A DNA stretch of 64,000 bases. Origin: Kiritimatiellia bacterium (lineage in GTDB: Bacteria; Verrucomicrobiota; Kiritimatiellia; RFP12; JAAYLN01). The notes below the pieces were generated by a model, which was given only the letters and a program-made list of their open reading frames with translations, was not told where the DNA came from and searched no databases. Below, piece by piece: positions 59,201 through 61,523 of this stretch. The stretch lies in assembly GCA_045627605.1 (NCBI GenBank), contig JAZQOA010000072.1:28005-92004 (forward strand), given 5' to 3'. The first letter of the stretch is position 1; each line of letters opens with the position of its first letter. The position numbers were made by a program, and so were the translations under genes.

Positions 59201-59906
59201 CACGTGCCCGATCGGCCGCCAGCTCCTCGCGGTTGCGGACAACCTGGTTCGCAAGTCCGTCTGGATCCTCGGTGGTGACGGCTGGGCATACGACATTGGC
59301 TACGGCGGGCTCGACCATGTTCTCGCCTCGGGCAAGAACATCAAGATCCTCGTCATGGACACCGAAGTCTACTCCAACACCGGAGGACAGGCCTCCAAGT
59401 CGACCCCGATCGGCGCGATCGCCAAGTTCGCGGCCGCCGGCAAGACCCAGGCCAAGAAGAACCTCGGCCTCATGCAGATGCAGTACAAGAACGTCTATGT
59501 CGCCTACGTCTCGATGGGCGCCAACCCCGCCGCGACGGTCAAGGCCTTCAACGAGGCCGAGAACTACAACGGCCCGGCGCTGATCATCGCGTACGCGCAC
59601 TGCATCGAGCAGGGTCTCGCGACCAAGACCGGCCCCGCCCACCAGCAGGCGGCCGTCGACTCGGTCCACTTCCCGCTCTGGCGCTACAACCCGACGCTCG
59701 CGGAGAAGAAGCTGCAGCTTGACTCGGCGGACAAGTCCGACAAGGTCTCGTTCGCGGAGCGCGCCCTCTCGAAGGACTGCGGCGAGAACCGCTTCAAGCA
59801 GCTTGTGAAGATCGCCGGCCCCGAAAAGGCCCAGGAGATGCTCAAGCGCGCCGAGGACGGCTTCAAGGAGAACTACGCCCTCCTCAAGAAGCTCTCCGAG
59901 ATGTAA
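56289..59906 (+). CDS. nifJ: pyruvate:ferredoxin (flavodoxin) oxidoreductase
   Basis: 1205 aa. N-terminus [32 protein letters not shown], two 4Fe-4S motifs ([27 protein letters not shown]) and the TPP domain [17 protein letters not shown]. Confidence 0.95.
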   Translation: [1205 protein letters not shown]

Positions 59907-59930
59907 GTCCCTGGTGGCTTCTAGCAAAAA

Positions 59931-59962
59931 GGCGCGACGGCGAAAGCCGCCGCGCCTTTTTT
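59931..59962 (+). terminator. rho-independent terminator of nifJ
   Basis: GGCGCGACGGC-gaaa-GCCGCCGCGCC followed by TTTTTT. Confidence 0.85.
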
Positions 59963-59976
59963 AATTGCCGTAGCGA

Positions 59977-60005
59977 TTGCGAGCAGGCGTTAAAAATGAT
60001 ATACT
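59977..60005 (+). promoter_or_regulatory. candidate sigma70-like promoter of the second ATPase gene (TTGCGA-N17-TATACT)
   Basis: TTGCGA at 59977-59982, 17-nt spacer, TATACT at 60000-60005, about 40 nt upstream of the ATG at 60046. Confidence 0.35.
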
Positions 60006-60045
60006 ATACGGCAAAGTTGGTTAACAAAAAGAGTGAGTTTGCCGC

Positions 60046-61383
60046 ATGAAGGTTGTCAGAGAACGATATTTGAAGCAATTGCGCGAACGGATGCATAACG
60101 GTTTGGTGAAAATCATCACAGGCATTCGACGTTGCGGGAAGTCTTATCTTCTTGGGGTTCTTTTCAAGGAGTATCTTGAGTCCATCGGCGTCGATCAGGC
60201 GCACATCATCGAGGTTGCTCTTGACAAAGATGAATTTCGCGGAATTCGCGACGCGATTCGACTGGGCGAGTACATTCGTACGCGGATTGTGGATGACGGC
60301 AAGTGGACGTATGTCTTCGTGGATGAGGTACAGCTAGCGAAAAAGGTCTTGCCGGACGGTGTGGACATCAGCCGTTATGCGCCTGAAGACCGAGATGAGG
60401 CTTATGTCACTTTTTACGATGTCCTCAACGGCATCAGACAAATGAAGAATGTGGACGTGTATGTCACGGGATCGAATTCAAAAACACTTTCCAAGGACAT
60501 CGACACCAATTTCGCAGACCGTGGCTATCAGATTCGCATGCACCCATTTTCCTTTTCGGAATACTGCCAGGCACTTCAGCCGGAAGACAAGGCAGAGGCG
60601 TTCAGCCGCTATCTGACTTGGGGAGGGATGCCGCTGGCCGTGGCGGAGACAACGGATGACGGTCGGGCTCGCTACCTGAAAGGATTGTTTTCGGAAGTGT
60701 ATTTGAAGGATATCAAATTGCGGTATGAACTGAGAAATGACTTTGTCCTTGGAAAATTGATTGATGTGCTTTCCAGTGCCACGGGGAGTTTGACGAATCC
60801 GCACAAGCTGCGGGACATGCTTGAGTCAACGTTGAAGATCAAGGCGGGTGATCATACGATTGTCAATTACATCGAGTACCTCATAGACGCATTCCTGTTT
60901 TCGGAATCCAAGCGCTGGGACGTAAAGGGAAAGTCGTATTTCGACTATCCGGTTAAGTATTATGCCGAAGACACGGGGCTGCGAAACGCCCGGCTTGAAT
61001 TCCGCGATGTGGAACCGTCGCATTCGATGGAGAATGTCATTTACAACGAACTGGTTCGCAGGGGGTGTTCGGTGGATGTCGGGGTCGTTCAGATTTCCGG
61101 CAGGGGTGAAAATGGGAAACAGTTCCTGCGGCAGCACGAGATTGATTTTGTGGTAAATCGGGCGCCAGGAAAGATCTACATTCAGTCTGCATGGCGACTG
61201 CCTTCGGAAGAAAAGCTCCAGCAGGAACTTTTGCCCCTGCGCCGTAGCGGCGATTTCTTCAAGAAGATCATCGTATCGGAAGGGTATGCGCGGCCGATGC
61301 AAGATGAATTCGGCATCGTACACATCGGCGTGATTCCGTTTTTGCTTGACGAGTGTTTTCTGGAAGATGCCCTTTTGAAATGA
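60046..61383 (+). CDS. AAA+ ATPase, COG1373/DUF4143 family (second copy)
   Basis: 445 aa. Walker A GIRRCGKSY, Walker B VFVDEVQ and a DUF4143-like C-terminal half. Lower GC than the flanks. Confidence 0.8.
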   Translation: MKVVRERYLKQLRERMHNGLVKIITGIRRCGKSYLLGVLFKEYLESIGVDQAHIIEVALDKDEFRGIRDAIRLGEYIRTRIVDDGKWTYVFVDEVQLAKKVLPDGVDISRYAPEDRDEAYVTFYDVLNGIRQMKNVDVYVTGSNSKTLSKDIDTNFADRGYQIRMHPFSFSEYCQALQPEDKAEAFSRYLTWGGMPLAVAETTDDGRARYLKGLFSEVYLKDIKLRYELRNDFVLGKLIDVLSSATGSLTNPHKLRDMLESTLKIKAGDHTIVNYIEYLIDAFLFSESKRWDVKGKSYFDYPVKYYAEDTGLRNARLEFRDVEPSHSMENVIYNELVRRGCSVDVGVVQISGRGENGKQFLRQHEIDFVVNRAPGKIYIQSAWRLPSEEKLQQELLPLRRSGDFFKKIIVSEGYARPMQDEFGIVHIGVIPFLLDECFLEDALLK

Positions 61384-61412
61384 GTTTTCGACAGCCTACT
61401 CATAGCAAATAG

Positions 61413-61466
61413 GAGGAAGGCTTCAAGGAGAACTACGCTCTCCTCAAGAAGCTCTCCGAGATGTAA
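61413..61466 (+). pseudogene. orphan duplicate of the nifJ 3' end
   Basis: 52/54 nt identical to 59853-59906, including the stop. Reads ...[15 protein letters not shown]. Confidence 0.8.
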
Positions 61467-61489
61467 TCGGAAGACGCTTCAGGCGAAAC

Positions 61490-61523
61490 GGCGCGACGGC
61501 GAAAGCCGCCGCGCCGTTTTTTA
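61490..61523 (+). terminator. second copy of the nifJ terminator hairpin
   Basis: The 26-nt hairpin is identical to 59931-59956 and is followed by GTTTTTTA. Confidence 0.75.

Follow-up and report, generated by a model that had tools for sequence, protein, structure and literature searches.

Introduction

Integrases can insert foreign DNA at the 3' end of a bacterial gene while supplying a replacement for the displaced gene end, as in the e14 and phage 21 insertions in icd and in tRNA-targeting islands, and integrase-less derivatives are represented by cis-mobilizable elements (CIMEs) and by tandem accretion at the att sites of integrative and conjugative or integrative and mobilizable elements (ICEs and IMEs). 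In the pan-genomes of E. coli and Pseudomonas, chromosomal hotspots of defence genes and horizontal gene transfer are found between core genes and contain no mobility genes; they are usually explained by a double homologous exchange in the flanking core genes, which leaves no nested duplicates of core-gene ends. In the effector-immunity arrays of type VI secretion systems (T6SS) and in Rhs loci, displaced 3' ends and orphan modules have been explained by homology-facilitated illegitimate recombination (PMC5361080; Kirchberger et al. 2017, with reference to Jackson 2009, Koskiniemi 2014, Prudhomme 2002, and Meier & Wackernagel 2003). Here we report the analysis of a duplicated 3' end of nifJ, the gene for pyruvate:ferredoxin/flavodoxin oxidoreductase, which together with a duplicated terminator brackets an ATPase gene in a Kiritimatiellia bacterium. 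The locus lies in a 64,000-nt stretch of DNA, hereafter called the window, which represents positions 28005-92004 of contig C72 (JAZQOA010000072.1) in the metagenome-assembled genome (MAG) G000 (GCA_045627605.1; 158 contigs, 2.9 Mb, 84.65% complete).

By all indications in its sequence, the structure is a real insertion scar and one of many layered recombination scars at nifJ in rumen Kiritimatiellae, and we regard it as a fairly ordinary trace of genes having been gained with no dedicated mobile-element enzyme. It resembles the Rhs, contact-dependent inhibition (CDI), and T6SS arrays in that cargo separates an intact gene from stranded allelic 3' fragments of that gene, and in that it grows beside a conserved gene, without a recombinase and with remnant lengths varying by strain. 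Unlike in these arrays, the anchor is the housekeeping gene nifJ with its terminator and not a polymorphic toxin gene, the cargo is of the toxin-antitoxin (TA) or defence type and not cognate immunity, and as little as 54 nt and a hairpin may make up the displaced piece. With the integrase insertions at gene 3' ends it shares a duplicated 3' end flanking foreign DNA, an intact gene with a distal remnant, and repeated accretion; it differs from them by the absence of an integrase in any locus searched, by repeats of variable length reaching ~500 nt, by truncated cargo edges, and by the involvement of several unrelated genes of the same genome. As at the core-gene hotspots, a hypervariable TA/defence islet is located between nifJ and pncC/pheT and its content differs in nearly every strain, whereas the nested duplicates of a core-gene end that are left at nifJ set it apart from them.

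Results and Discussion

Two copies of the nifJ end and terminator

The nifJ gene (56289-59906, + strand; 1205 aa) is intact, with the Pfam domains POR_N, POR, EKR, PFOR_II, Fer4, and TPP_enzyme_C and a third-codon-position GC content (GC3) of 0.94. Repeats were detected by a search within the window and by BLAST of the repeat against the whole MAG. A first-pass annotation, made from the sequence alone, had reported that the last 54 nt of nifJ recur downstream with 52 matching positions and that a 26-nt hairpin recurs identically; both observations were reproduced. The segment 59853-59906 matches 61413-61466 at 52 of 54 positions (96%), and 59917-59965 matches 61476-61524 with 88% identity over 49 nt. 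The two repeats merge into a single 113-nt unit (59853-59965 versus 61413-61524) with 87% identity (E 3e-32), which is present in exactly two copies in the MAG, ruling out a repetitive extragenic palindromic (REP) or other repeated-hairpin interpretation. Copy 1 (R1, + strand) consists of the nifJ end with its stop codon, a linker (59907-59930), the hairpin (59931-59956), and a T-run with tail (59957-59965), while copy 2 (R2, + strand) consists of a stranded nifJ 3' remnant, a linker (61467-61489), the hairpin (61490-61515), and a T-run (61517-61522). Both copies contain the GC-rich hairpin GGCGCGACGGCGAAAGCCGCCGCGCC without any difference, with a T-run after it; both hairpins fold at -30.1 kcal/mol, with none of 200 shuffles of each folding as well, and both sites were scored as terminator-like.

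The linkers between stop codon and hairpin had been described as unrelated. This holds for the first 9-10 nt after the TAA stop (GTCCCTGGTG versus TCGGAAGAC), to which the differences are limited and which are unalignable, but not for the last 14 nt before the hairpin, where 10 of 14 positions match in register (GCTTCTAGCAAAAA versus GCTTCAGGCGAAAC). The linker of copy 2 reads TCGGAAGACGC, and the start of the copy-1 linker, GTCCCTGG, resembles the NTCCCGG seen after many functional nifJ genes in related loci. At the base of the hairpin stem, the copies differ by a compensatory change, the pair being A59930-T59957 in copy 1 and C61489-G61516 in copy 2. The coding part of copy 2 is identical at all 54 positions to the functional nifJ end of locus L042 from another lineage and has GAA and GCT in common with the same-genus genomes, that is, the clade consensus; copy 1 has two lineage-specific changes at these codons (GAC and GCC). 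Because of the 87% identity, the unalignable first 9-10 nt of the linkers, and the compensatory stem-base pair, the copies are diverged alleles of one nifJ end with its terminator and not a fresh duplication, in support of the earlier proposal of an insertion scar as opposed to a simple tandem duplication.

The boundary of copy 2 is sharp: the sequence upstream of 61413 has no similarity to nifJ, so the possibility raised in the first-pass annotation that copy 2 forms part of a longer nifJ fragment does not apply to the window, whereas such longer fragments do occur in its relatives. Copy 1 serves as the working nifJ terminator, and the hairpin of copy 2 now terminates the ATPase gene as a borrowed terminator. 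For annotation, this implies that short stranded gene ends with a terminator behind them should be treated as scars and not as genes, and that the terminator of a cargo gene can come from a displaced copy. No tRNA was found, and Rfam searches gave only far sub-threshold matches (unrelated sRNA families at both hairpins and a CRISPR-repeat family at 56189-56218).

Independent assemblies and strain variation

Both copies and both junctions are present at 99.2% identity in locus L030 from the ENA assembly ERZ27247115. The Logan contig L031 from run ERR6929681 (99.6% identity) covers copy 1 and the ATPase gene and runs 36 nt into copy 2, and L168, a contig from a third run, has the identical junction of the ATPase gene, 29 nt, and copy 2. 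The right junction AAATAG|GAGGAAGG is identical in L030, L031, and L168. These data bear on the concern that metagenome assembly joined the nifJ ends of two strain variants in a single contig, which the fragmentation of the genome into 158 contigs might invite, as might the Logan contigs L031 and L062, whose break inside copy 2 may reflect strain variation there. We consider such an artefact hardly credible: the structure recurs across different assemblers and samples (the GTDB MAG, ERZ27247115, ERR6929681, and Logan SRR21150865), and between the cargo/copy-2 junction and the nifJ sequence upstream of copy 1 there is no common k-mer, so that the junction cannot be an artefact of the assembly graph.

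Between the window and L030 (57143-62453), single-nucleotide polymorphisms (SNPs) are unevenly distributed, with 22 in 2764 nt of nifJ, including five within 34 nt (59276-59309), and three in the 1447 nt of the ATPase cassette (Fisher p = 0.019; p = 0.006 with vapBC added). The downstream vapBC genes contain two SNPs in 816 nt and element E seven in 113 nt. This suggests that adjacent segments had different recombination histories. The sole strain SNP inside copy 1 (59895) makes copy 1 of the window equal to copy 2 at this position.

The same observations are relevant to an origin of the repeat by local duplication of the nifJ end and terminator during insertion or repair, e.g., if the template was switched at the strong hairpin or a break with long staggered ends was filled in, after which the functional nifJ allele and its linker would have been overwritten from other strains. 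An excess and clustering of SNPs in nifJ relative to the ATPase cassette would fit allele turnover in nifJ, the clade-consensus sequence of copy 2 beside two lineage-specific changes in copy 1 agrees with such overwriting, and the equalising SNP hints at conversion between the copies. Nevertheless, we hold this origin to be unlikely. The overwriting needs a crossover within the 49-nt hairpin segment or a donor that carried the same cassette, the compensatory stem change suggests two functional terminators evolving separately, and the recurrence of remnants with other cargo and other lengths, here and at other genes, is left unexplained.

The contigs of run ERR6929681 break just past the polymorphic base 61439, with L031 ending at 61448 and L062 starting at 61440. 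The break could represent a second path in this sample, e.g., an empty-site or recombinant allele.

The ATPase cassette and its edges

From ~59960 to ~62400, the GC content falls from ~0.65 to ~0.50, and because the drop extends this far, the low-GC islet includes vapBC as well as the ATPase gene. The earlier description of AT-richer DNA with a promoter and a DUF4143 ATPase gene between the copies was accurate but covered only part of the islet. The 113-nt repeats bracket 1447 nt of this low-GC DNA. The ATPase gene (60046-61383, + strand; 445 aa; GC ~0.50) encodes AAA_14 (Pfam E 1e-24) and DUF4143 (E 5e-10) domains and matches the PADLOC candidate PDC-S01 (model PDLC04787) with E 1.7e-102. PDC-S01 has been reported as the commonest single defence locus of rumen genomes (PMC13356809), and DUF4143/COG1373 has been placed in the PD-(D/E)XK nuclease superfamily (PMC3424549). 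From the PDC-S01 match, the ATPase is a candidate single-gene anti-phage defence gene; the likeness (AAA_14 with DUF4143, COG1373) covers the cargo only, not the insertion mechanism, and the defence role is presumed.

A sigma-70-like promoter, TTGCGA-N17-TATACT (59977-60005, + strand), precedes the gene inside an inverted repeat formed by TTGCCGTA (59965-59972) and TACGGCAA (60007-60014). In homologous cassettes, the ATPase promoter is surrounded by TTAATCAAGTTTGCCGT / ACGGCAAACTTGATTAA, an inverted repeat that is perfect over 17 nt and suggestive of an operator for some repressor. These cassettes are 82-86% identical to that of the window at the nucleotide level and are found between the desulfoferrodoxin and prismane genes (L032, L063, and L065), behind element E (L064), or behind a gene encoding a helix-turn-helix (HTH) protein (L168). 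Their homologies stop at different points and no repeats flank them, including in L032, where the ATPase protein is 89% identical.

The left junction (59962-59972, no strand assigned) is where the T-run of the terminator, with TTAAT, meets the operator-like inverted repeat, whose left arm is truncated. In an alignment with L064, L032, L063, and L065, the left arm of the window lacks the TCAAGT of TTAATCAAGTTTGCCGT and runs into the terminator tail TTTTTTAAT, while the repeat is complete in L168, L064, and L032. Homology of the window to L064 and L168 begins exactly at 59965, and the TTAAT at the junction occurs both in the tail of the terminator and in the inverted repeat of the cassette. At the right junction, L168 agrees with the window, but its left continuation, a leader and the HTH gene, is longer and different. 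The left junction of the window most plausibly goes back to a later deletion, by which the ATPase promoter came to lie directly behind the copy-1 terminator, and the DNA between the copies was probably once longer, since the junction truncates an inverted repeat that is complete in relatives and L168 continues further left. The left edge, which had been taken as an insertion boundary, would accordingly be a secondary junction. On the other side, the 29-nt spacer (61384-61412, + strand) leads to the right junction at the Shine-Dalgarno-like (SD-like) GAGGAAGG. The cargo edges thus appear to be truncations and not element ends.

Neither a transposase open reading frame (ORF) in the cargo (Pfam) nor terminal inverted repeats at its ends (repeat search) were found; a transposon or insertion sequence (IS) was rejected on these grounds and because the repeat is 113 nt long and diverged. 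An integron cassette was likewise rejected, as no tyrosine recombinase is encoded on the contig, the GC-rich hairpin with its T-run is a terminator, and the cassette includes a promoter of its own.

Stranded nifJ ends in related loci

Metagenome nifJ loci (L033-L056, n = 24) were gathered by a scan with a 45-mer from the nifJ end, and the ancestry of junctions among them was judged by eye in alignments. Almost every one of these loci has different DNA after a conserved 45-85-nt post-stop hairpin segment, and stranded nifJ 3' fragments occur in seven of the 24 (L036, L047, L048, L052, L053, L054, and L056). The fragments start ~44, 45, 54, 375, 485, or 510 nt before the stop codon and so fall into six start classes, to which L171, an NCBI MAG contig from another lineage, adds a start at ~232 nt. 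The 54-nt remnant of L053 starts at GAGGAAGG, as in the window, next to DUF3990 cargo, and the 45-nt remnant of L048 is followed by the terminator type found after intact nifJ in L045, L049, and L054. L052 contains a degenerate ~560-nt fragment with the last 44 nt 95% conserved, and shares with L054 and L047 a common junction near window position 59419. The remnant of L036 starts at window position 59396 and is interrupted at 59530/59531, and that of L056 corresponds to window positions 59531-59580, its left junction matching the inner junction of L036 at 59531.

In L171, the intact nifJ end with its hairpin is followed by a PIN TA pair, element E, three small low-GC genes, a fragmented nifJ remnant, a terminator, the motif TTTTTTATCGA.AATC as in the window, vapBC, and again E. 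The remnant comprises at least 232 nt, with segments corresponding to positions 189-242 (98%), 244-294 (92%), and 348-420 (88%) of the contig's own nifJ tail, split by 45-70-nt inserts. The region of vapBC and E is 80.5% identical at the nucleotide level between the window (61683-62453) and L171 (3614-4383). The block of nifJ end, terminator, vapBC, and E is thus orthologous in the two lineages and appears to represent the older resident context, which would make copy 2 the older copy. In each lineage, different cargo would have been wedged between the resident block and the working nifJ, leaving a remnant of 54 nt in the window and of at least 232 nt in L171.

Cargo across the nifJ loci includes PIN toxins, DUF3791/DUF3990, AAA_14 with DUF4143, ATPase_2/NERD-like, and HD proteins, as well as a Tle1-like lipase with an HTH protein, PrsW, and DUF805. 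Among 73 phylogenetically distant nifJ loci, none has a direct downstream nifJ remnant, which rules out a generic property of nifJ loci; the sole close GTDB match in this control is a goat-rumen Kiritimatiellae genome. From these comparisons, the region downstream of nifJ is, in all likelihood, a lineage-specific hotspot for TA- and defence-like cargo in rumen Kiritimatiellae.

Two additional features were observed in these loci. The remnants at L171:3067-3372 and L036:2020-2106 contain several 45-90-nt GC-rich inserts of short words (e.g., AGCGAAG and CGTAGCG). In the goat-rumen Kiritimatiellae MAG L069, inverted repeats of ~100 nt (9020-9140 and 11414-11520) just after the nifJ terminator surround 2.3 kb with a 460-aa ORF, a segment that could be invertible or flanked by miniature inverted-repeat transposable elements (MITEs).

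Recombinases and other duplicated gene ends

The first-pass annotation found no recombinase encoded at this locus, and the wider searches agree. By ORF and Pfam analysis, none is encoded between nifJ and pncC in the window, none was found in the ~27 nifJ-downstream loci inspected (including L030, L033-L056, and L171), and no strong Pfam recombinase match was obtained for 53 ORFs with 170 aa or more that lie downstream of nifJ. The MAG encodes three tyrosine recombinases (on contigs C41, C58, and C101) and no serine recombinase, and none of them is located on C72.

Self-BLAST of the MAG identified at least four further duplicated gene ends that flank accessory DNA, the repeat being the stop-proximal end of a high-GC3 gene. 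The repeat on C59 (3491-3584 / 5666-5759; 98.9% identical) encloses Schlafen AlbA_2 and HATPase_c_4 cargo, and that of an adhesin gene on C56 (30261-30390 / 33044-33173) encloses an AAA_14+DUF4143 gene with a TA pair. On C109, a duplicated gene end (5456-5500 / 6287-6331) lies next to accessory DNA. In the repeat of a xylB-like gene within the window itself (C72 31450-31505 / 34858-34913), a third AAA_14+DUF4143 gene abuts the remnant. On C38 (12848-12900 / 14493-14545), only a terminator was duplicated, and an internal SNF2 fragment forms one more repeat next to accessory DNA. The cargo of the C59, C56, C109, and C38 repeats also includes a secreted protein. No recombinase was found near these other duplicated gene ends. 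Synteny gave no empty sites for the C59 and C109 events, there being no conserved far flank in relatives. Homologues of the DNA-uptake proteins ComEC and DprA are encoded in the MAG and weakly favour acquisition by uptake of DNA; they are widespread among bacteria, also match in 10-11 of 14 control genomes, and are thus non-discriminating.

On contig C23 (12592-16078), three serial copies of a 75-145-nt segment, containing the 5' end of a small gene on the minus strand, alternate with two paralogous two-gene cassettes (~275 aa + ~175 aa) that, from their N-terminal sequences, we take to be AbiE-type TA pairs.

The nifJ and adhesin repeats that enclose AAA_14+DUF4143 genes, and the third such gene abutting the xylB-like remnant, might suggest that the DUF4143 ATPase-nuclease gene mobilises itself and that its insertion duplicates the ends of target genes; the assignment of DUF4143 to the PD-(D/E)XK nuclease fold (PMC3424549) and the very many close family copies in short contigs point the same way. 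However, flanking direct repeats, which the first-pass annotation had proposed to look for around other DUF4143 genes, were found at only two of 14 testable genes, one of them the window gene, versus 16 of 400 random segments (p = 0.12). In addition, such repeats are missing from the 82-86% identical cassettes of L032, L063, L065, and L064, whose homologies end at different points, and other nifJ remnants enclose cargo without any ATPase. Self-mobilisation of this gene is therefore very improbable, and we rejected it on the count of repeats and on the L032 homologue without flanking repeats.

The main alternative is that a trans-acting tyrosine or serine recombinase integrated the DNA site-specifically, as for a CIME-like cassette that has no integrase. 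The attB would then be formed by the terminal ~45-54 nt of nifJ and perhaps the hairpin, copy 1 would be attL and copy 2 attR, the attP arm would restore the gene end, and the recombinase gene would have been lost or would be located elsewhere. Such integration would account for the sharp left boundary of the repeat, on which the window and L053 agree although their cargo is unrelated and from which L048 and L052 deviate by no more than 10 nt; moreover, the end of the repeat coincides with the stop codon or follows it, as in classical 3'-end integrations, and the cargo is typical of small mobile islets. The absence of a recombinase from the ~27 nifJ-downstream loci and from the vicinity of the other duplicated gene ends speaks against it, remnants of 232-510 nt far exceed the usual att arms, and the left cargo edge is apparently a truncation and not an element end. 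At least five genes of one genome share the architecture and would need as many site specificities; given three tyrosine and no serine recombinases for many targets, a separate site-specific enzyme for each is implausible. We therefore regard integration in trans as possible but doubtful. The attL/attR-like arrangement suggested in the first-pass annotation is correspondingly weak, with remnants of ~44-510 nt, the same architecture at other genes, and none of the three recombinases nearby.

A proposed route of gene acquisition

The allelic copies, the variable nested remnants, the many target genes, the lack of a recombinase, and the truncated cargo edges lead us to favour a homology-anchored acquisition with illegitimate joins and a later deletion at the left junction, that is, a sequential displacement, in which we place about even confidence. 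The ancestral layout would have been nifJ, terminator, vapBC, and E. DNA from a related strain would have entered with its own nifJ 3' end, terminator, and cargo, the nifJ end serving as the homologous anchor; it would have recombined homologously inside nifJ, and its other end would have been attached by an illegitimate join 54 nt ahead of the resident stop codon, as in homology-facilitated illegitimate recombination. The product would be topologically equivalent if a circle with the same segment had been inserted in a RecA-dependent, Campbell-type manner. In either case nifJ would keep an intact end and terminator (copy 1), and the resident end (copy 2) would be pushed downstream together with vapBC. 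Of the cargo, a later deletion would have left only the ATPase gene, its promoter now joined to the T-run of the terminator, and repeats of the process in the lineage would have generated the nested nifJ remnants and the small defence/TA islet. We infer the order of events, the homologous and the illegitimate recombination, and which copy is foreign.

Several points weigh against this explanation. The window and L053 have the same remnant start (GAGGAAGG, -54) beside unrelated cargo, and L048 (-45) and L052 (-44) start close to it; such clustered starts exceed the expectation for random junctions and would fit a defined att arm. As to which copy is foreign, copy 1 has lineage-specific changes, yet its linker is like the usual nifJ 3' untranslated region (UTR). 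Mobile elements are often left unbinned in MAGs, and at 84.65% completeness a trans-acting recombinase could have been missed. Homology-facilitated illegitimate recombination is rare in experiments (PMC5361080). Finally, the empty site nifJ-terminator-vapBC, which the first-pass annotation had recommended searching for in relatives, was not found for the window lineage by pattern and protein look-ups, and we infer the insertion without it. A GTDB pattern scan for the nifJ end, any linker, and the window hairpin gave no hits, look-ups with VapC and VapB returned only short contigs starting inside copy 2 or inside vapB, and the same-genus genomes G001-G003, which have neither vapBC nor pncC beside nifJ, yielded no empty site. 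The arrangement of nifJ, terminator, and PIN TA in L045 and L049 was rejected as an empty site, since the toxin is only 39-40% identical to the window VapC and is thus analogous, not orthologous.

The clustered starts also raise the quite unlikely possibility that the nifJ end and hairpin are the landing pad of an integron-like cassette-stacking system in rumen Kiritimatiellae, where a trans factor or a hairpin-dependent mechanism would insert promoter-bearing defence/TA cassettes with an 'attC-like' arm of nifJ end and hairpin. Such a system would explain the exact -54 boundary common to unrelated cassettes.

With its unusually clear layering, the locus illustrates how small defence/TA genes accumulate beside a highly expressed core gene without a visible mobile-element enzyme. 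By homology-anchored acquisition, each gain would supply a spare gene end and terminator, so that the function of the core gene is never lost, and the stranded ends would record the order of events. The hypervariable nifJ locus could mark strain history and the rate of defence-gene turnover in rumen Kiritimatiellae-like strains, and it offers a test case for homology-anchored illegitimate recombination versus trans recombinases in uncultured gut bacteria.

vapBC, element E, and the downstream breakpoint

Downstream of copy 2, a vapB-like antitoxin gene (61684-61947) and a gene for a PIN-domain VapC (61944-62318; PIN E 1e-11) together occupy 61684-62318 on the + strand and have their own promoter. 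The genes overlap by 4 nt (61944-61947), and the architecture fits a type II VapBC toxin-antitoxin system; the antitoxin has no Pfam or NCBIfam match. From the shared block in L171, vapBC is probably an older neighbour of the nifJ end. At its 3' end (62295-62318), the window vapC has a 7-nt indel relative to L030 and L062. The encoded VapC has 124 aa versus 128 aa in all close homologues, with identity stopping at residue 119, and its C-terminus may be altered in the window.

Element E (62342-62453, + strand) is a 112-nt structured element with two GC-rich hairpins (fold -55.6 kcal/mol, z = -2.95) and no Rfam match. It is 89% identical in G016, a genome of a different family, present in two copies in L171, and located upstream of the ATPase cassette in L064. 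Position 62453 is a recurrent breakpoint, with at least three different continuations directly after ...GTCAAAACAACTT(A/C)GCG. Element E may be a 3' UTR or terminator of the TA module, or a second recombination hotspot. At the 62453 site, L030 has ~4 kb of extra genes, including an intact ATPase_2/NERD-like gene, the protein of which was annotated by Pfam. The window retains a 53-nt internal fragment of this gene (62453-62505, + strand), which matches L030 8690-8742 at 96%, encodes MGRETRYRIKDNYVR, and is a deletion scar.

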